Positions 215-14,010 of a stretch of 20,148 bases of DNA are shown here, piece after piece. The position numbers and the translations under genes are program-made. Below the pieces are notes generated by a model that was given only the letters and a program-made list of their open reading frames with translations, was not told the origin of the DNA and searched no databases. Numbering within the stretch: position 1 is the stretch's first letter; each line of letters starts with the position of its first letter. The stretch is taken from positions 1-20,148 of IMG/VR virus record IMGVR_UViG_2541047958_000001; one strand, 5' to 3'. The stretch comes from a virus. Taxonomy: Duplodnaviria > Heunggongvirae > Uroviricota > Caudoviricetes.

Positions 215-1162
215 TTAGTCAGTTGATGAGGTAAATGATATCATTTCGATAACTTCTATTCCTTTAGAATTAATTCTGTAGCATTCGTTTTTCGATTTCC
301 TGATGTATGAAAATGAATCTTTTTTTGTATTGCAATCTGTCTTAGAAAAAGCATCAAGTAAAAGAAAAGACTTCTGATGCTCTGGTATTATCTTTATTGA
401 AAAAACACTAATGAATAATAATGCAATTGCTGTCGATAATAGATCTGCAACTCTTAAGTAGCTATTCGAACATATGAGTATTTTTTTAAACCATATCATT
501 AAAATTAGTTTTGCTCTATTAATATCTTGTGCCATTGTTTTTGCAATGTATAATAGATTCTTTTTATTGGATGAAGTTGATTCTTTATTTGTTTTTTGCA
601 TTGCTTTGAACATGGTTACGATACCGAAAGCTAACCCGAAAACTAACAACATAATAACTTTGAAATCAACCTCTTGGTTTTTTTCAATCGTCTCTCTTAG
701 CATTGCAGAAAAAGTGATGGTCAAAATTACCGCGTAAAAGCATTGATAAGCAGTAATTCTTCCAAAGTATAAGTATATGAAAATGCTAAGGCCATAAATG
801 GATAGAGATAGAGGAATGGCCATTGCGAAAGCATAACCATAAGATGAGTATATTAAGTATTCCGGTTGAATATCGTAATCAAAATTAATTTTATGTTTTG
901 CATACCACATACAAATTGAAAAAATCAATACTGTTCCAATCCATTTAATGATGCTGTGCTCAATCATTTTATTGACGATTGTTTTTTTGTTGTTATAGGC
1001 ACAAAAAATGAATGCTACGGAGAGGAATAATCCACAAACTAAGAAGGTTTTATCTTGAAGTAATAATGGGAACTTCATGATTACAATGCAAGCAATCAGC
1101 AAATATATAATGGATACAATATTGAAATCAAAATTTGCAATGTGTTTTCTAATGTAACGCAT
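215..1162 (-). CDS. Polytopic inner-membrane protein of unknown function (about 8-9 predicted TM helices)
   Basis: 315-aa ORF, strongly AT-rich, repeated 15-25 residue hydrophobic stretches separated by short K/N-rich loops. AAGGA SD 9 nt upstream of the ATG at 1162, overlapping the integrase stop, so it appears co-transcribed downstream of the integrase. No catalytic motif recognised. Confidence 0.6.
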   Translation of the reverse strand: MRYIRKHIANFDFNIVSIIYLLIACIVIMKFPLLLQDKTFLVCGLFLSVAFIFCAYNNKKTIVNKMIEHSIIKWIGTVLIFSICMWYAKHKINFDYDIQPEYLIYSSYGYAFAMAIPLSLSIYGLSIFIYLYFGRITAYQCFYAVILTITFSAMLRETIEKNQEVDFKVIMLLVFGLAFGIVTMFKAMQKTNKESTSSNKKNLLYIAKTMAQDINRAKLILMIWFKKILICSNSYLRVADLLSTAIALLFISVFSIKIIPEHQKSFLLLDAFSKTDCNTKKDSFSYIRKSKNECYRINSKGIEVIEMISFTSSTD

Positions 1163-2397: not shown

Positions 2398-3561
2398 TTA
2401 CACATCATTAGTACCTTCCTTATTTTTTGACTGGGACAAATTTGGGACCGATGGGTTCAGGATCGAGTCTATTTGCCGTGCGTGTTCGGTAAGGTGATTA
2501 GGTGCAAGGTGAGCATATCGACGAACCATTTCGATAGACTCCCAGCCTCCCATTTCCTGTAACACTGACAACGGGACTCCGGCTTGAACCAGCCAACTTG
2601 CCCAGGTGTGTCTCAAGTCGTGAAATCTGAAATCATCAATACCAGCCCGTCTCAGCGCCGCTTTCCAGGCTGTGTTTGCGTCATACCGCATCTTCCTTAC
2701 TGTTGGCGCTTTCGTTCCGTCTGGTTTGGTACAGCTTTCCTTGTACACAAATACCCAACGGTGATGATTCCCGATTTGTTTTTTCAATACGCGACATGCA
2801 GTATCATTCAGCGCAACGCCGATTGCGCGGTTTGATTTACTCTCTTCCGGGTTTATCCATGCCACCCGGCGCTGCATATCTATTTGTTGCCATTCAAGGT
2901 TGATGATGTTCGAGCGTCTTAAGCCTGTTGCCAGTGCAAATTCAACAACAGACTTTAATGGCTCCGGACATTCATCAATCAGCCTTTGTGCTTCATGGGG
3001 CTCCAGCCAGCGGATCCGTTTATTCTTTGGTTGAGGCACTTTAATAATTGGTGCCTTATCCAGCATTTTCCATTCACGCTCTGCGGCTCTTAGTAGGGCT
3101 TTTATAAATGAAAGATGCGTAGCCTTCGTTGCAACAGACGCTGGTTTTGGCGTGTATTCTGGAACAGGTTTCCCTTTTTTTCTGCATGCTTCTTCCCTGA
3201 GTTTCCAGTTTTCCTCATTACGCCGGTTCGTCATTTTCTGCATTGCTGAATAAATTTTTGATTCAGTAATGTCTCTTAGTTGCATTCCTGCGAAATGTTG
3301 AAGCCAGAACCCGATCCGGCTTTTGTCATCGTCCAGTGATTTTTTATGTGCTTTCTCTTCAAGCCACCTGACACACGCTTCCTCGAACGTTATATCAGGT
3401 ATTTCACCAAGTTTGCTGACCCGCCATGCTTCAGCCTTTAGCTTGTCATGGAGTTCTGTCGCCTGCCTTTTGTCCTTTGTTCCAAGAGACTGTTTAAATC
3501 TTTTACCGTTCGGCAATGTGAAACTGGCGTACCATATTTCACCTCTGCGGAAGAGTGACAT
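2398..3561 (-). CDS. int: Phage integrase, P22/lambdoid type (tyrosine recombinase)
   Basis: 387-aa ORF with HDLRH box and RYAH catalytic tyrosine region; closely resembles the P22-family integrase as I recall it; 3' end abuts the tRNA-Thr att core, as expected for attL-int. Confidence 0.92.
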
Positions 3562-4613: not shown

Positions 4614-5117
4614 TTATTGATAGTGTTTTATGTTCAGATAATGCCCGATGACTTTGTCATGCAGCTCCACCGATTTTGAGAACGACAGCGACTTCCGTCC
4701 CAGCCGTGCCAGGTGCTGCCTCAGATTCAGGTTATGCCGCTCAATTCGCTGCGTATATCGCTTGCTGATTACGTGCAGCTTTCCCTTCAGGCGGGATTCA
4801 TACAGCGGCCAGCCATCCGTCATCCATATCACCACGTCAAAGGGTGACAGCAGGCTCATAAGACGCCCCAGCGTCGCCATAGTGCGTTCACCGAATACGT
4901 GCGCAACAACCGTCTTCCGGAGCCTGTCATACGCGTAAAACAGCCAGCGCTGGCGCGATTTAGCCCCGACGTATCCCCACTGTTCGTCCATTTCCGCGCA
5001 GACGATGACGTCACTGCCCGGCTGTATGCGCGAGGTTACCGACTGCGGCCTGAGTTTTTTAAATGGCGGAAAATCGTGTTGAGGCCAACGCCCATAATGC
5101 GGGCGGTTGCCCGGCAT
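4614..5117 (-). CDS. insB: IS1 InsB (expressed as InsAB' by -1 frameshift)
   Basis: 167-aa ORF matching the IS1 transposase catalytic part; overlaps insA in the -1 frame. Confidence 0.93.
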
Positions 5118-7654: not shown

Positions 7655-7945
7655 TTAGTGATTCAGGCCGTTACCGCGTCCGTCGAGAAAAACTTCCACG
7701 AGCAAATCACGGGTATAAGTGCGCTCGATGCCGCGATGCAGATAAAGCCGTCCGCGTAAATTAGCTGATGCAGTCCAGGTACCATCTTTGTGTTTGACCA
7801 GCATTCCTGGCATGACCGCACCTCGATTAACGGTCTGCGTTCCATAATGTTGATGAACCATAAAAACTCCTGCCCGTAAGCTGGGCTGCTGAACATATAG
7901 AGACTTCTGCGCGTATTCAGGCGGTGGATGGCCGCCGGTTGTCAT
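7655..7945 (-). CDS. Hypothetical 96-aa protein, first ORF downstream of the pL-like promoter (N position)
   Basis: ATG at 7945; weak GAGG 10-11 nt upstream; no arginine-rich N-terminal motif; an alternative overlapping 77-aa ORF (7663-7896) exists in another frame; coding status uncertain. Confidence 0.35.
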
Positions 7946-8099
7946 AACTAAGCCGCCTCGTTGAAGCGACTAAGGTATGAAATGTTGAGTTAATTTCAGC
8001 TGGTCACACCGACGTTCACGCGTCCGTTTCACCCCTCGCACTCCCCGAAGCCTGCTGAAATTCAAACTGCGGATCTAAGCGGTCATCGCAACGGTGAAT

Positions 8100-8230
8100 C
8101 AGGTAGTTGCCGTATCGTTGTGTTGTTGCGATGAACTTATTTAAAACTATAGTTGTTTTATCGTCAACAACAAAAGTTGTTTTATTGGTTGTTTTAGATA
8201 TAACTGGTTGTATTTAGGATGGATTTATTT
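8100..8230 (-). promoter_or_regulatory. oL/pL-like region: array of GTTGTT/AACAAC operator half-sites with a leftward TTGACG-17 nt-TTAAAT promoter-like element
   Basis: At least six GTTGTT/AACAAC half-sites, including the inverted pair AACAACAAAAGTTGTT; the same half-site appears in the oR palindrome at 10000-10024. Minus-strand -35 TTGACG (8167-8162), 17-nt spacer, -10 TTAAAT (8144-8139). Coordinates in this stretch could not be cross-checked against an ORF. Confidence 0.4.
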
Positions 8231-8307
8231 TGTGACTTGCATCGCACAGCGATAACTGAAGCGAGGTCGTGGTGGTTTTTTGAACGGTTTGTGTGATGAG
8301 GGGAGGC

Positions 8308-8335
8308 AAAAGAAAACCCGGCACGACGGCCGGGG
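8308..8335 (-). terminator. Intrinsic terminator immediately 3' of the 287-aa gene
   Basis: Minus-strand hairpin CCCGGC-CGUCGU-GCCGGG followed by UUUUCUUUU, beginning 4 nt after the stop codon at 8339-8341. Confidence 0.55.
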
Positions 8336-8338
8336 AAA

Positions 8339-9202
8339 TCATTTCGCATCTACAATAAATAACCTGTTTATCTGGCCTTTTTTAACAGTAGCCTTTGCGG
8401 TTATAGTGAATACTGCAGATGGATCACCTTTGGTTGATATATATGCACTAAGAGCTCTAATATACGGGTTATTCTTCTTTCCTGCAGCTGGATCGCTAAT
8501 TTCAGCAGTGATTCTCTTTTTTGAGTCATCACCATCTAAAATTATTTTAGCTGTCATATTTTGTGCATCAAATTCTGTAAGAAAAGCACGATACTCACGA
8601 AGACCGAGAACTTCATCATCATCAAGCCTATCAATTTCAGCTTTATCTCTCTCGTTAACTTTTAGAAGGCAGCCGTCAACATTTGTTGCAACACTTATCT
8701 GATCGCAAGTATTACCAATAGGTGATACTGCCTGCCTTACAGAGGGGCGAAGCTCTACAGCCATTCGGTCAATCAAAGAGATCAACTTATCAATGGTTCC
8801 AGCATCCTTGTTTCCTAGTGCCTCTATGGCCTTTTCAAGTGACTGCTGCAAAGCTTTCATTTCATCTTTCTTGTTAGAATTTCTCGCAAAAATATATTGT
8901 AGTATTGCGCCAAGTATAGTTGCGGCGATCCCCGAGAACAACTGGTTCTGAGTGGCGAAGTTAAGAACTGCTTCAAGAGTAAAGCAGTTAGCTTTTGCTT
9001 CGCGTGCGTAAACCTTAACTTCCTGATAATTAATGTATTTACTATATTTTTGTGTAACAGAGAAAGAAGCTGCTGTTGAGAGAACTTTAGAAAAACCCTT
9101 TAGGGATTCTCCTAGGCAGTTCAAATCTATTTCATGATTTAAAGCATCTTTTCCGTCATACCTAAGAGAGATTTTTATATCCTGTAAAGCGTCACAATCC
9201 AT
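8339..9202 (-). CDS. Orphan 287-aa protein of unknown function in the immunity-region moron slot (rexAB-equivalent position)
   Basis: Co-oriented with and 66 bp downstream of cI, followed by its own terminator and then oL/pL; clearly more AT-rich than the flanking phage genes; one central hydrophobic helix ([18 protein letters not shown]) followed by a charged coiled-coil-like segment; no family recognised. Confidence 0.7.
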
Positions 9203-9268
9203 AAATCGCTCTCGTCTAATTCTAATTAAATTTACTATCCCCTAAACGACTCATCAGCACAGTACTGA

Positions 9269-9958
9269 TTATCCATGTTTCCTGTACGTCTGGGGCATGC
9301 TCCCAATAACCTTACCGAAGATGAACACCCGGTTCATCTCGTCTTTCTCGATCGGGTCCCACGGTGAGTAGCTCTTGTTATCAGAGATAACCAGCAGCTT
9401 ATCCTTCATCATTTGCAGGCGCTTTACATGGGCTGTGTCGTCGTACAGAAACGCATAGATACCATCACCGTCGAAAGATTTAACCGTGATATCAACGAAC
9501 AGCAGATCACCTGGTTCGATCGTTCCTGACATGCTGTCACCACGCACGTTAATGATGCGGATATTTTCCGCCTTCCTACCATCGAACATGTGACGAGCAT
9601 CGTCAAACGAGTACTCAACCGAGCGTAGAACTTCTACAAACTCACGGTTGATGACTCCCGGCCCAGCACTGACTTCTATATCAAGAACGTCAATCTTGAA
9701 GTATTTGGAATGGCTGACAGTTGATTGTATTGGTTGCACTGTACTGTCTGACATATTTCCAACGCCAGAAGATAACCATTCTGCGCGCACACCCAAAGCG
9801 TTCGCGATCTCCACGATTTTAGTTGTTTGATTAGCTTTCCCTGTTTCGATTTTCTGAATAGCAGCCTGGCTAACCCCGACCAAATCCCCAAGCGCCTTTT
9901 GTGTAAGGCCTCGCGCTAATCTGGCTTCTTTAAGTCTTTCTGAGAGTGTTGTTTTCAT
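9269..9958 (-). CDS. cI: CI-type prophage repressor (HTH_XRE N-domain plus S24 LexA-like autopeptidase C-domain), 229 aa
   Basis: HTH LTQKALGDLVGVSQAAIQKIETGK; Ala-Gly cleavage site in EVSAGPG; Ser nucleophile in RGDSMSGT and Lys in HVKRL. Start taken at ATG 9958 (MKTTLSERL...), because the ORF-track extension to 10024 runs through the operator/promoter region. Confidence 0.85.
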   Translation of the reverse strand: MKTTLSERLKEARLARGLTQKALGDLVGVSQAAIQKIETGKANQTTKIVEIANALGVRAEWLSSGVGNMSDSTVQPIQSTVSHSKYFKIDVLDIEVSAGPGVINREFVEVLRSVEYSFDDARHMFDGRKAENIRIINVRGDSMSGTIEPGDLLFVDITVKSFDGDGIYAFLYDDTAHVKRLQMMKDKLLVISDNKSYSPWDPIEKDEMNRVFIFGKVIGSMPQTYRKHG

Positions 9959-10062
9959 AGTCCAAATGTACAACCAAGGTTTTATTCCATCAAACGAAAA
10001 TGGTTGTTGACTAAAAACAACCATAGTTTTAATCTTGATTCAAATTAACCACGGAGGTTGTT
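9959..10062 (+). promoter_or_regulatory. oR/pR/pRM-like divergent control region
   Basis: Perfect 9-bp-arm inverted repeat ATGGTTGTT-N7-AACAACCAT (10000-10024) overlapping a rightward promoter: -35 TTGACT (10007-10012), 17-nt spacer, -10 TAATCT (10030-10035), then GGAGG SD (10053-10057) 5 nt before the cro ATG. Confidence 0.6.
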
Positions 10063-10293
10063 ATGAACCCAGCTATCAAAACAGCGATCAATATCGTTGG
10101 TTCACAAAAGAAACTGGGCGCTGCTTGCGAAGTTTCACAGCAGGCCGTCTATAAGTGGCTTCACAACAAAGCAAAGGTATCCCCTGAACATGTCGGCAGC
10201 ATTGTTACGGCTACTGGTGGAGTAGTGAAGGCATACCAGATTCGCCCGGATCTTCCGAAGTTGTTTCCACACACCGAAAAGAACGCAGCTTAA
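10063..10293 (+). CDS. cro: Cro-like HTH regulator (76 aa)
   Basis: Divergent from cI across the operator region; helix-turn-helix (KKLGAACEVSQQAVYKWLHN); strong SD. Confidence 0.8.
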   Translation: MNPAIKTAINIVGSQKKLGAACEVSQQAVYKWLHNKAKVSPEHVGSIVTATGGVVKAYQIRPDLPKLFPHTEKNAA

Positions 10294-10362: not shown

Positions 10363-10902
10363 ATGCAACCACTTACATACCAACAGACTAGCGGATTTAG
10401 CCCGACTGCGGTGATAAATCGTTCTCAAACAAAACAGGTGCCAGGCCACGAAAAAATCCGTGATGCCGTCCGCGCCTGGTCGGCTGTAGATAATCAGGAT
10501 GTCGTTGCCACACTCATTGTGAATGAGTATCGGGAGCAGGGCGGCGGCACCATCGATTTCCCTGATGATGTCAGCCGTGCACGCCAGAAGCTGTTCCGCT
10601 TCCTCGATAACAAATTCGATTCTGAAAAATACCGAAATAACGTGCGTGAACTGACCCCGGCAATTCTGGCGGTACTACCGCTGGAATATCGCGGTTACCT
10701 GGTTGAGCAGGATAGCTTCATGGCTAGGTTGGCTGAAATGGAAAAGGAACTCAGTGAGGCAAAACAGGCTGTCATTCTCAACGCACCACGCCACCAGAAA
10801 CTGAAGGAAATTAGTGAAGGTATTGTGTCGATGTTTCGTGTGGACCCAGATCTGGCTGGTCCATTGATGGCGATGGTTACTACCATGCTGGGGGCGATAT
10901 GA
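10363..10902 (+). CDS. CII-position regulator, 179 aa (CII/CP76/YdaT-like)
   Basis: Position immediately after cro, AAAGGAG SD; family assignment by position and size only, from memory. Confidence 0.5.
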   Translation: MQPLTYQQTSGFSPTAVINRSQTKQVPGHEKIRDAVRAWSAVDNQDVVATLIVNEYREQGGGTIDFPDDVSRARQKLFRFLDNKFDSEKYRNNVRELTPAILAVLPLEYRGYLVEQDSFMARLAEMEKELSEAKQAVILNAPRHQKLKEISEGIVSMFRVDPDLAGPLMAMVTTMLGAI

Positions 10903-10988
10903 CAGGTTCAGAAATGGCGAAAGCCGGTCTGCTGGAACAGAACCGACTTTCAGGTGCAAATCGTAACACACTCATTGCGGGAGGAATT

Positions 10989-11918
10989 ATGGCAAACACT
11001 GCTGAGATATTCAATTTTCCAGTGCCGGATGCGGCACAAAAGGAGCCGCGCGTGGCAGATCTCGATGATGGTTATACGCGCATTGCAAATGAGTTGCTGG
11101 AAGCTGTGATGCTGGCCGGATTAACACAGCACCAGCTTCTGGTCTTCCTAGCTGTCATGCGCAAAACATATGGCTTTAATAAAAAACTGGATTGGGTGAG
11201 CAACGAGCAACTGTCCGAATTGACCGGGATATTGCCGCACAAGTGTTCTGCTGCAAAAAGTGTTCTGGTAAAGCGTGGGATTCTTATTCAGAGCGGGCGG
11301 AATACCGGCATTAATAATGTGGTCAGTGAATGGTCAACATTACCCGAATCAGGTAAGAAAAATAAAGTTTACCTGAAAGAGGTAAATTTACCTGAATCAG
11401 GTAAAAAAAGTTTACCCAAATCAGGTAAAGACGTTTACCCGAATCAGGTAAACACAAAAGACAAACTAACAAAAGACAATATAAAACCTTTTTCGTCCGA
11501 GAATTCTGGCGAATCCTCTGACCAGCCAGAAAACGACCTTCCTGTGGAGAAACCAGATGCTGCAATTCAGAGCGGCAGCAGGTGGGGGACAGCAGAAGAC
11601 CTGACCGCCGCAGAGTGGATGTTTGACATGGTGAAGACCATCGCGCCATCAGCCAGAAAACCGAATTTTGCAGGGTGGGCTAACGATATCCGCCTGATGC
11701 GTGAACGTGACGGACGTAACCACCGCGACATGTGCGTGCTGTTCCGCTGGGCATGCCAGGACAACTTCTGGTCCGGTAACGTGCTAAGTCCGGCCAAACT
11801 CCGCGACAAGTGGACCCAACTCGAAATCAACCGTAACAAGCAACAGGCAGGCGTGACAGCTAGCAAACCAAAACTCGACCTGACAAACACAGACTGGATT
11901 TACGGGGTGGATCTATGA
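10989..11918 (+). CDS. O: Replication initiator O (lambda O family)
   Basis: N-terminal domain DLDDGYTRIANELLEAVMLAGLTQHQLLVFLAVMRKTYGFNKKLDWVSNEQLSELTG resembles the lambda O DNA-binding domain; ori iterons embedded in the linker-coding part; ATG at 10989 with GAGGA SD (the ORF track extends upstream to 10899). Confidence 0.85.
   Translation: MANTAEIFNFPVPDAAQKEPRVADLDDGYTRIANELLEAVMLAGLTQHQLLVFLAVMRKTYGFNKKLDWVSNEQLSELTGILPHKCSAAKSVLVKRGILIQSGRNTGINNVVSEWSTLPESGKKNKVYLKEVNLPESGKKSLPKSGKDVYPNQVNTKDKLTKDNIKPFSSENSGESSDQPENDLPVEKPDAAIQSGSRWGTAEDLTAAEWMFDMVKTIAPSARKPNFAGWANDIRLMRERDGRNHRDMCVLFRWACQDNFWSGNVLSPAKLRDKWTQLEINRNKQQAGVTASKPKLDLTNTDWIYGVDL
11340..11495 (+). repeat. Replication origin: five iterons TTTACCYRAAWSAGGTAA (starting 11340, 11368, 11387, 11411, 11434) followed by an A-rich tract
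   Basis: Five direct repeats, each an internal inverted repeat TTACC...GGTAA, spaced 19-28 bp, inside the O coding sequence, followed by ACACAAAAGACAAACTAACAAAAGACAATATAAAACC. Confidence 0.75.
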
Positions 11919-12133
11919 AAAACATCGCCGCACAGATGATTAACTTTGACCGTGAGCAGATGCGTCGGATCGCCAACAACATGCCGGAACAGTACGACGA
12001 AAAGCCGCAGGTACAGCAGGTAGCGCAGATCATCAATGGTGTGTTCAGCCAGTTACTGGCAACTTTCCCGGCGAGCCTGGCTACCAAAGGTGGGAAGCTG
12101 GAACTGACCATCACTGAACTGGGAGATGAATGA
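11915..12133 (+). pseudogene. Remnant of replication protein P (first ~57 codons lambda P-like, then 15 unrelated codons and stop)
   Basis: MKNIAAQMINFDREQMRRIANNMPEQYDEKPQVQQVAQIINGVFSQLLATFPASLA matches the lambda P N-terminus (from memory); lambda P is about 233 aa and the ORF here ends at 72 aa. Confidence 0.6.
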
Positions 12134-12270
12134 TGTTTGAGTCTTATATGGCAGAACGTCTTCGCCGCCGCTGGGTGCGCCTGCGCTTATATCGTTTCCC
12201 CGGTTCTGTTTTGACCGATTACCGAATACTGAAGAGTTACGCCAAAACCCTGACAGGAGCAGGAGTATGA
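12130..12270 (+). CDS. Small basic protein, 46 aa (YlcG-like)
   Basis: ATG overlapping the P-remnant stop; MMFESYMAERLRRRWVRLRLYRFPGSVLTDYRILKSYAKTLTGAGV; lies just upstream of Q, as ylcG does in DLP12-type prophages (from memory). Confidence 0.4.
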   Translation: MMFESYMAERLRRRWVRLRLYRFPGSVLTDYRILKSYAKTLTGAGV

Positions 12271-12355
12271 AGTCAGAGATAACAATCAACTAATACTGTT
12301 TTGTTGATTTTTGCTTGTAATTGGCGTTTTGGTCTGATTTTTGTGGAGTAAGTTG

Positions 12356-12739
12356 ATGCGTGATATTCAGATGGTTCTTGAGCGTTGGGGAGCGTGGGCG
12401 GCTAATAATCATGAAGATGTGACCTGGTCGTCCATTGCCGCCGGTTTTAAGGGATTAATTCCTTCAAAAGTAAAATCTCGCCCGCAATGTTGTGACGATG
12501 ACGCGATGATCATTTGCGGGTGCATGGCCCGTCTGAAAAAGAACAACAGCGATTTGCACGATTTATTAGTAGATTATTATATAGTCGGTATGACATTCAT
12601 GTCACTGGCAGGTAAGCATTGCTGCTCTGATGGTTATATCGGGAAAAGGTTACAAAAGGCTGAGGGCATAATTGAAGGGATGTTAATGGCATTAGATATC
12701 CGGTTAGAGATGGATATCGTTGTTAATAACTCTAATTAA
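12356..12739 (+). CDS. Q: Late-gene antiterminator Q (phage 21/82 / QuuD type), 127 aa
   Basis: ATG at 12356 with GGAG SD; Cys-rich zinc-binding region ([12 protein letters not shown] ... HCC); last gene before the late/lysis region. Confidence 0.8.
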
Positions 12740-12927: not shown

Positions 12928-14010
12928 TTAGAACTGGTAAACCATACCTACAGCAACGATATCATCGGTAGCAACGCCAGATGCTTTCGTGAAATCGCTC
13001 TTATCAATCAGGTTGATTTTGTAGTCAACAAAAGTGGACATATTTTTGTTGAAGTAATAGGTTGCACCTACATCAACATATTCAACCAGGTCCTGATCAC
13101 CCCAAACACCCAAGTCTTTTCCTTTAGAATGCAGGTAAGCAACGGATGGACGCAGGCCGAAGTCGAACTGATATTGTGCAACAGCTTCGAAGTTTTGTGC
13201 TTTGTTGGCAATATGGTTATTACCAAAAACAGTCATGTTCTGGGTTTCAGAATAGGTGGTGGCCAGATAGATGTTGTTCGCATCATATTTCAGACCAGCT
13301 GCCCATACTTCAGCATTTTGACCAGAAGCATTCAGACCGTTGTTACCGTAGATAACCTGATTATTAGTGCGATCAGATTTAGCATAGGTTGCACCCACGC
13401 CGAATCCTTCATACTCATAAGTAGTTGAGAAACCGAAACCATCGCCATTAGCTTCAGTTACTTCATTTCGGTCATTTTTGCCCTGATACTGAGCTGCAAA
13501 GTTCAGGCCATCAACCAGACCAAAGAAGTCGTTGTTACGATAAGTTGCAACACCTGTGGTGCGACCAGTCATGAATACATCTGTTTGGGTCCAAGTATCG
13601 CCACCGAATTCTGGCAGAACGTCGGTCCATGCACCAATATCGTATGCTACACCGTAGTTACGGCCATAATCGATGGAGCCGTAGTCACCGAATTTCAGGC
13701 CAGCGAAGGCAAGACGGGTTTTATCTTTGGAGGAACCTTGAGATTCAGCGCGGTTGCCTTTGAATTCATATTCCCACTGACCGAAACCAGTCAGTTGATC
13801 GTTGATTTGGGTTTCACCTTTGAAGCCAAGACGGGCATAAGTAGTATCACCATCATCTGCATCATTAGAGGAGAAGTAGTGCTTAGCATTAACTTTCCCG
13901 TACAGATCCAGCTTGTTACTGTCTTTATTATAAATTTCAGCTGCCTGAGCAGACATCGCCATCAGTACTGATGCAGCTACAGCAGAAATTGCCACTGTTA
14001 ATTTTTTCAT
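12928..14010 (-). CDS. nmpC: General diffusion porin of the OmpC/OmpF/PhoE family (NmpC/Lc-type, phage-borne moron), 360 aa with signal peptide
   Basis: Signal peptide [29 protein letters not shown]; beta-barrel sequence with C-terminal ...VAVGMVYQF; sits between Q and the holin on the opposite strand. Confidence 0.9.

Follow-up and report, generated by a model that had tools for sequence, protein, structure and literature searches.

[quoted passage not shown] The cI-to-pL slot that it occupies is a defence hotspot. We regard the encoded protein as a candidate for anti-phage defence of some kind, a role to which we give somewhat better than even credence. The features of the locus are listed below; the coordinates of cI follow the RefSeq-style start, and the longest ORF reaches 10,024 bp.

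8122–8193, no strand assigned: oL operator array and pL region with GTTGTT/AACAAC half-sites (half-site count)
8307–8334, minus strand: intrinsic terminator closing the immunity (cI) operon, hairpin 8334–8317 plus T-run (scan; shared backbone)
8335–9268, no strand assigned: variable cassette, absent or replaced in otherwise collinear phages (homology break points)
8339–9202, minus strand: coding sequence of the 287-aa DUF7946/DUF7947 protein, including the TGA stop (ORF, Pfam, PHROG, dN/dS)
8342–8602, minus strand: DUF7947 region, aa 201–287, OB-like or small beta-barrel domain
8630–9172, minus strand: DUF7946 region, aa 11–191 (Pfam, AF2 secondary structure, conservation)
8885–8941, minus strand: hydrophobic helix, aa 88–106, which may be a transmembrane anchor or else the central helix in a bundle
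9203–9268, minus strand: 66-nt spacer between cI and the gene, with a weak promoter-like element and a weak GAGAG Shine-Dalgarno sequence (sequence, scan)
9269–9958, minus strand: cI-type repressor of 229 aa, HTH_3 plus Peptidase_S24 (Pfam; RefSeq WP_000858975.1, 'S24 family peptidase')
9959–10,062, no strand assigned: oR and pRM–pR region (half-sites, palindrome, divergent cro at 10,063)

The ORF begins with ATG, ends with TGA at 8339–8341 and is co-oriented with cI, 66 nt downstream of it (8339–9202, minus strand), as described in the initial annotation. RefSeq holds exactly the same protein as WP_000340376.1, labelled 'hypothetical protein' or 'DUF7946 domain-containing protein', which was present on at least 1000 contigs. 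At an identity of at least 99% the gene was found in 77 of 5426 complete E. coli genomes and was chromosomal every time. Full-length homologs showed 90% identity in Klebsiella and Enterobacter, 65% in Serratia, 53% in Morganella and 49% in Neisseria and Vitreoscilla. An exhaustive profile search revealed homologs down to approximately 20–40% identity, which fell into 496 clusters (50% identity, E ≤ 1e-3), nearly all of them 270–300 aa long. Comparison with the Klebsiella-type homologs gave a dN/dS of 0.02–0.06, with synonymous sites near saturation. The distant full-length homologs and these dN/dS values show that the 287-aa ORF is a real gene, and it is under purifying selection. Throughout the family purifying selection was strong and localised hypervariability slight, in which it differs from many phage-sensing proteins. 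The GC content of the gene was 0.384 (GC3 0.295), compared with 0.47 for cI (GC3 0.51) and 0.52 for bet (GC3 0.58), which agreed with the earlier claim that it is more AT-rich than its Red and cI neighbours. Broken alleles were also observed, namely an IS1 insertion in strain VG1046-3E9 and copies with a frameshift or truncation in L052, L053, L059 and L085. The prophage of the window itself seems defective, as Q directly follows O, and the gene could therefore be a relic here. Searches of the window for Rfam families and tRNAs found none.

The initial annotation had placed a TTTAGG-16 nt-TAGAAT promoter in the 66-nt gap. The element was present but weak: its -35 hexamer matched the consensus at three of six positions, the promoter scan did not list it and the sites reported by that scan were no commoner than in shuffled sequence (4 vs 4.9 ± 2.3). 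A promoter of the gene's own in this gap was thus not supported beyond a weak consensus match. The minus-strand scan placed no terminator between cI and the 287-aa gene. A six-pair, all-G:C hairpin, CCCGGCCGTCGTGCCGGG, at 8334–8317 and followed by TTTTCTTTTG, began 4 nt past the stop codon. The same hairpin was found in phages in which the slot was empty or held other cargo, and for this reason it belongs to the shared phage backbone; the hairpin and T-run that had been described were therefore present, but their assignment to the gene as its own terminator was rejected. Beyond the terminator, 5 of the 27 half-sites in the window lay within 72 bp (8122–8193), in accordance with the proposed oL/pL operator array. 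At the other end of cI, half-sites clustered between 10,003 bp and 10,062 bp, and a 25-bp palindrome (10,000–10,024) was flagged on both strands of the oR region.

Alignment of the window with phages PhiR34_1, PhiR47_2, PhiR26_1, PhiR30_1 and D2 showed that homology ended at 8334 bp and restarted at 9268–9270 bp. These break points were shared by all five phages, which bore out the suggestion of a swappable single-gene cassette. In GenBank lambdoid phages both flanks were present at 90–99% identity and the 287-aa gene was missing; the gene was the only difference among otherwise collinear phages. The slot of PhiR34_1 contained nothing, that of PhiR26_1 a small lipoprotein gene and those of PhiR30_1 and D2 other two-gene sets. 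PhiR47_2 carried GevT/GevA, annotated as toxin and antitoxin, on which the literature search returned noise and nothing relevant. The PhiR phages and HipAD probably come from Brenes & Laub 2025. In Klebsiella-type phages the cassette was preceded by a 30–40-nt remnant of the 3′-end of the E. coli-type cI, lying downstream of a different resident repressor. This remnant is a scar and shows that the gene moved together with the end of cI. No second ORF of at least 45 aa was found on the same strand between 8335 bp and 9268 bp, so that no partner or antitoxin gene was encoded by the cassette.

The cI of the window was present at a coverage of at least 80% in 1520 of the 5426 complete E. coli genomes. 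The contents of the slot were surveyed in 12 genomes sampled across the cI ranking, together with strain 720632, which bears the 287-aa gene. The repressor was identical to WP_000858975.1 in 11 of these 13 genomes (10 of the 12 sampled), the close variants being WP_061092793.1 in H64 and WP_000858974.1 in H69. Four of the 12 slots were empty and three held a pair of proteins of 87 aa and 147 aa with no assigned function. One slot encoded a HipA-family kinase and a DUF3037 protein (WP_000389051.1 and WP_000210934.1), which are the DS-6/HipAD pair of the DefensePredictor study. Another, in E. coli EC38 with the same cI protein, encoded a 'RexA family antiphage protein' and a 147-aa partner. A third encoded a 353-aa protein with an ASCH protein, matching the arrangement of GevT/GevA, a fourth a DUF6932 protein with WP_001288169.1, which is likewise predicted by machine learning (ML) to be a defence protein, and a fifth a single 126-aa protein. 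All cargos with a functional name carried defence or toxin-antitoxin annotations. The earlier comparison with the slot of rexA/rexB thus held: the validated HipAD/DS-6, a RexA-family pair and a GevT/GevA-like pair all lay beside the same or a nearly identical cI. The cI-n region in general has likewise been described as a site of defence genes (PMC8585504).

The position of the gene downstream of a repressor was conserved across distant hosts. This was established from 73 viral-contig loci and 7 genome loci, together with contigs coding for distant homologs, in which the gene almost always came straight after a repressor and in its orientation. Homologs with 38–67% identity, from Morganella, Vitreoscilla, Neisseria, Mannheimia and many Enterobacterales, lay 8–140 nt downstream of prophage repressors and were co-oriented with them. 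Of 45 distinct upstream neighbours, 32 were HTH plus Peptidase_S24 proteins and five were short CI-type HTH proteins; these repressors were only approximately 13–30% identical to the cI of the window. A hairpin with a T-run followed the stop codon in 20 of the 22 homologs shown, in nearly every lineage (the positions of the other two were misplaced by frame). Exceptions included a Serratia AlpA island, which had no repressor and where an AbiD gene was 1.5 kb away, and contigs in which the homolog followed a portal gene. In a Vitreoscilla prophage the gene after the homolog was the SIR2-like PDC-S25.

The family had been called unrecognised; it is in fact catalogued, though uncharacterised, as Pfam DUF7946 and DUF7947, as PHROG 5147 and as WP_000340376.1. 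DUF7946 matched aa 11–191 (E 3.8e-55, 187 bits) and DUF7947 aa 201–287 (E 1.4e-18, 67 bits), both above the gathering cut-off of 27, and the phrog_5147 profile spanned residues 1–287 of 287 (E 1.5e-178), which makes the protein a member of all three. AF2 secondary structure and conservation indicated that DUF7946 starts with a strand bearing an RYDG-DA--H motif and a long helix, and continues with a probable three- or four-helix bundle and an LRP--RQAV-PIG motif. The C-terminal domain superposed on OB-type barrels. Its best structural matches were the periplasmic metal chaperones SilF and CusF, which carry no implication of defence, and sequence identity to OB-fold or CusF/SilF-like proteins was 3–13% (8–9% for SilF), with Foldseek E-values that were not significant. 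Nucleic-acid binding would be compatible with the conserved basic and aromatic barrel positions K219, R230, Y247 and K270. Foldseek against the PDB returned nothing at E ≤ 1e-3; solved structures gave no sequence match at E ≤ 10, and a BFVD search matched only uncharacterised viral proteins. In the Pfam scan and structure searches neither an enzymatic domain nor a known effector domain could be recognised, nor any significant structural match other than this generic OB-like barrel, and a second, profile-based word-index search yielded no further relatives with a name. The invariant-looking Cys73 and Cys166 were considered as a disulphide or metal site, which was rejected because the two cysteines were lost independently across 178 homologs (both in 112, C73 only in 18, C166 only in 40, neither in 8). 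DUF7946, DUF7947 and WP_000340376 were not mentioned in the main text of the papers found by the literature search.

Two other families shared part of the sequence. The PADLOC candidate PDC-S42 matched aa 9–127 against positions 4–113 of its 302-position profile (E 1.5e-4, 19 bits) and was the only defence family that PADLOC matched. The NCBIfam family LAPAL_fam (NF053583) matched the N-terminal 111 residues only (E 4.7e-6, 26.2 bits against a cut-off of 60). Among 104 diverse members of the 287-aa protein's family, PDC-S42 was matched by 24 (best E 3e-8) and LAPAL_fam by 56 (best E 1e-10), which makes them sister families, with the query a member of neither. Nothing relevant on PDC-S42 or LAPAL was found in the literature. 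The 287-aa protein is an uncharacterised combination of folds, without homology to any studied protein.

The central hydrophobic helix of the initial annotation was confirmed at aa 88–106, but its flanks are 87 aa and 181 aa long rather than about 110 aa and 170 aa. The mean Kyte-Doolittle value of these 19 residues was 1.85, and 117 of 177 homologs showed a peak of at least 1.6; the maximal segment had its median position at residue 88. Lysine and arginine averaged 0.75 on the N-terminal side and 3.5 on the C-terminal side. If the helix spans the membrane, this asymmetry predicts an N-out/C-in topology with the barrel in the cytoplasm. Eisenberg analysis of the segment gave a mean hydrophobicity of 0.72 and a moment of 0.19, and weak holin-type PHROG matches (E 0.1–0.13) were confined to it. 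No signal peptide was detected. The hydrophobic peak and the K/R asymmetry speak for the claim that the protein is membrane-associated, but the anchor was made doubtful by a polar stripe with charged residues in 10–19% of homologs, by the fading of the peak in distant family members and by the AF2 model, in which the helix seems to lie within a bundle of three helices. Mean-field DCA directed at burial of the helix (Meff 117) gave gap artefacts as its top pairs. On balance we lean slightly against helix 88–106 being a constitutive membrane anchor.

The DefensePredictor study (Science 2026, PMC13092281) gave an independent score. In its Table S5 ('uncharacterized_clusters') WP_000340376.1 is a 'Predicted novel defense gene' with a mean log-odds of 6.28 (SD 0.66, range 5.26–7.19), and in Table S10 it has a log-odds of 7.45, above the strict cut-off of 4 (PMC13092281). 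It is described there as a single-gene operon with no homolog or Foldseek match among known defence proteins (PMC13092281). It is absent from Table S6, which lists the cloned transcription units (PMC13092281), and so was outside the set tested in that study. Cloned units within 2 log-odds of 6.28 (4.3–8.3) protected in 16 cases and did not in 14 (PMC13092281), which sets an empirical floor of approximately 50% for similar scores on the 24-phage panel, with approximately 47% showing no phenotype.

Where the gene lies, its behaviour as a cassette, its companions in the slot and this independent score all favour an anti-phage role, which is the best explanation when they are taken together. The distant N-terminal homology to PDC-S42, the AbiD and PDC-S25 neighbours in atypical contexts and the anatomy shared with BstA and RexAB lend it further support, whereas the missing effector domain, the metal-chaperone matches of the barrel, the slight hypervariability, the doubtful anchor and the apparently defective prophage of the window count against it. 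The literature search found no experiments on the 287-aa protein or on the DUF7946/DUF7947 family, and the defence role is accordingly one that we infer. Of the exclusion or anti-phage factor originally suggested, the slot, the cassette and the ML score speak for the candidate, whereas its membrane part is doubtful. A guess of defence is nonetheless reasonable and has been echoed independently. As judged from the anatomy of the locus, the gene would be read through from the cI promoters and made continuously in lysogens. The protein may then shield the lysogen from other phages, whether through superinfection exclusion or through abortive infection. In order of falling certainty, the C-terminal OB-like barrel (DUF7947) could sense a nucleic-acid or protein cue of the infecting phage; the helical module of DUF7946 could be the effector, with helix 88–106 either anchored in the inner membrane (N-out, C-in) or shielded until activation and then engaging the membrane; and genome entry or early infection might be blocked, or membrane integrity lost so that the infection is aborted. 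This specific scheme of sensor and membrane effector is tentative and unlikely to hold in all its particulars. Also tentative is the view that DUF7946/DUF7947 represents a new single-polypeptide class of prophage immunity, in which the barrel would detect a component of an incoming or replicating phage and the bundle would deploy a shielded, membrane-grade hydrophobic helix to the inner membrane. RexA-like sensing and RexB-like membrane action would in that case be joined in one chain and, with PDC-S42 and LAPAL, a widespread superfamily of repressor-linked defence genes would extend across the Proteobacteria.

The slot and the hydrophobic segment can also be read in another way. Morons in such slots are not always defence genes, bstA having initially been tied to virulence phenotypes (PMC8585504), and the segment could serve as a signal-anchor for an exported or membrane-inserted factor with its CusF/SilF-like barrel in the envelope. 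Such a protein would be a lysogenic-conversion or host-fitness factor unrelated to phages, acting in metal handling, stress tolerance or surface alteration, from which the lysogen would gain in a niche. We consider this improbable, as a signal peptide is lacking, the K/R bias of a membrane-spanning helix would put the barrel on the cytoplasmic side, identity to SilF is 8–9%, the named cargos of the slot are all of the defence or toxin-antitoxin type and the ML defence score is 6.3.

The close linkage to repressor genes, which spans many immunity types and has persisted in evolution, would also suit a protein that regulates maintenance of its own prophage or the choice between lysis and lysogeny, affecting the CI/Cro balance, induction or re-lysogenisation, and the OB-like domain of the model could bind DNA or RNA. 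An influence on the lambda switch has been reported or proposed for RexA, besides its role in exclusion. Little weight is given to such a regulator, however, since many genomes and phages have the same functioning cI beside an empty slot, which makes the gene dispensable for immunity; the low identity of the paired repressors to each other (13–30%) argues against a specific partnership with CI, and the gene occurs without any repressor in the Serratia AlpA island. Least weight of all is given to a selfish, addictive toxic element or a decaying hitch-hiker without current benefit. The alleles disrupted by IS1, frameshifts or truncations, the apparently defective prophage of the window and the patchiness of the cassette (77 genomes against 1520 with cI) are what such an element would leave; a dN/dS of 0.02–0.06 over saturated synonymous divergence, full-length conservation across several orders of Proteobacteria and the absence of an antitoxin partner ORF from the cassette are not.

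In a prophage backbone that is very common in E. coli, the cI-to-pL slot acts as a plug-in bay for defence genes. The 287-aa cassette is one of its uncharacterised occupants, from a family of approximately 500 clusters at 50% identity. If it is protective, it would be a single-gene system with a new mechanism, having an OB-like sensor but no enzymatic effector of a known kind, and would help to explain differences in phage resistance among E. coli, Klebsiella and Serratia lineages, with a bearing on phage therapy. The order of repressor, gene and terminator also provides a simple rule for mining further candidates.

The locus was compared with known systems. HipAD/DS-6 is an alternative cargo of the same slot beside the identical cI WP_000858975.1, and was protective in experiment in a kinase-dependent manner (PMC13092281). 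It differs in being a two-gene, kinase-based and toxin-antitoxin-like system whose proteins are unrelated to the 287-aa protein. A type II toxin-antitoxin module was set aside for the cassette itself, within which no adjacent partner gene was found. PDC-S42 and LAPAL_fam are alike in being proteins of approximately 290–300 aa that share the N-terminal part of DUF7946, but alignment was limited to the first 110–120 residues and both families are uncharacterised. SNIPE is a single-pass, N-out/C-in inner-membrane nuclease whose DNA-binding domain is cytoplasmic; it cleaves DNA during injection and acts on lambdoid phages at genome entry (PMC13190303). The same topology is predicted here from the K/R bias if the helix is transmembrane, a possible analogy only, and in the Pfam scan the 287-aa protein had neither DUF4041 nor a GIY-YIG nuclease. 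Scans against Pfam, PADLOC, PHROG and NCBIfam revealed no Abi or nuclease domain, and those against Pfam, PHROG and NCBIfam no match to SieB or other named superinfection-exclusion families.

The closest parallels in organisation were RexAB and BstA. Lambda RexAB is encoded in the repressor operon, where its genes follow cI and precede the operon terminator and the pL region, and consists of a cytoplasmic sensor and a polytopic membrane protein that exclude T4 rII mutants with loss of membrane potential. The 287-aa gene lies in the same cI-to-pL slot of the repressor operon, but is one gene where RexAB is two. Membership of the Rex family was rejected, as hhalign gave a probability of 0.1–0.2% against the RexA-family protein and its partner, and there was no Pfam or PDB match; together with the scans for SieB, this agrees with the initial annotation, which did not recognise the protein as RexA, RexB or SieB. 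BstA of the Salmonella prophage BTP1 is encoded directly downstream of the repressor, with which it presumably shares a promoter, and has a native Rho-independent terminator, an architecture that is also conserved in prophages of diverse Gram-negative bacteria (Owen et al. 2021, PMC8585504). The 287-aa gene resembles bstA as a single prophage gene for a protein of approximately 300 aa, behind a repressor and ahead of a terminator, with an anatomy conserved across taxa. BstA differs in having the aba self-immunity DNA element inside its gene and shows no homology to the 287-aa protein, in which the Pfam scan found no match to KilA-N at E ≤ 1. The 287-aa gene thus follows the genomic logic of RexAB and BstA, that of a repressor-linked prophage moron with a putative defence role, and belongs to the family of neither.

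Two viral contigs of Klebsiella type (L044 and L047) carried, within the cassette that holds the 287-aa gene, a 30–40-nt remnant of the 3′-end of an E. coli-type cI, encoding ...PQTYRKHG and a stop codon, approximately 50–90 nt upstream of the gene. This remnant lay downstream of a different resident repressor; it is a recombination scar and shows that the gene is carried along with the cI 3′-end. Disrupted alleles were also found. The allele in E. coli NZ_CP128594.1 (hit H24) was interrupted by an IS1A insertion, and those at four further loci (L052, L053, L059 and L085) carried single-base frameshifts and one truncation after residue 161.

The slot between cI and kil was filled in E. coli LR-58-2 (L099) by DUF6932 and WP_001288169.1 (310 aa). 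The latter, too, is a 'predicted novel defense gene' of the DefensePredictor study, with a log-odds of 5.77 (PMC13092281), and was absent from the cloned units in the examined parts of Table S6 of that study. Distant homologs of the 287-aa gene in a Vitreoscilla prophage (L011) and a Serratia island (L006) also had defence-type neighbours:

L011, 7661–9271: SIR2-like protein (PADLOC PDC-S25, E 2e-142), directly downstream of the homolog
L006, 3449–4459: AbiD homolog (E 5.8e-55), 1.5 kb upstream of the homolog

The surrounding window contained the following features:

215–1162, minus strand: AT-rich orphan ORF, 315 aa, GC ~0.27–0.32
1173–2276: second integrase gene, adjoining the orphan ORF
2398–3561: main integrase
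4614–5117: IS1 transposase, within the early-left region
7655–7945: kil-region ORF
10000–10024: perfect 25-bp palindrome, ATGGTTGTTGACTAAAAACAACCAT, in the cI-cro intergenic region
10899–11918: O-like replication gene
12341–12739: antiterminator Q
12928–14010, opposite strand: Gram-negative porin gene (Porin_1, E 3.6e-152)

The terminator scan flagged the palindrome as terminator-like on both strands. It is most likely an oR operator, and a terminator is the disfavoured reading, because it lies between cI and cro and bears operator half-sites. Approximately 370 nt (7946–8316) separate the kil-region ORF from the oL/pL region; no N-like ORF was present in this interval, and no Rfam family matched there or in the rest of the window.

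The second integrase gene and the 315-aa orphan ORF were placed upstream of the main integrase. The orphan ORF had no match in Pfam or PADLOC and is possibly cargo from another integrated element. The porin gene, which may be nmpC-like, was flanked by Q and the lysis genes.

In E. coli strain 720632, the 287-aa gene is located in a prophage adjoining tRNA-Arg and intD, where P, a partial ren and a NACHT protein come after O. In the window, Q comes directly after the O-like gene (10899–12739) and the P, ren and nin genes are all missing; this prophage looks DLP12-like and defective.
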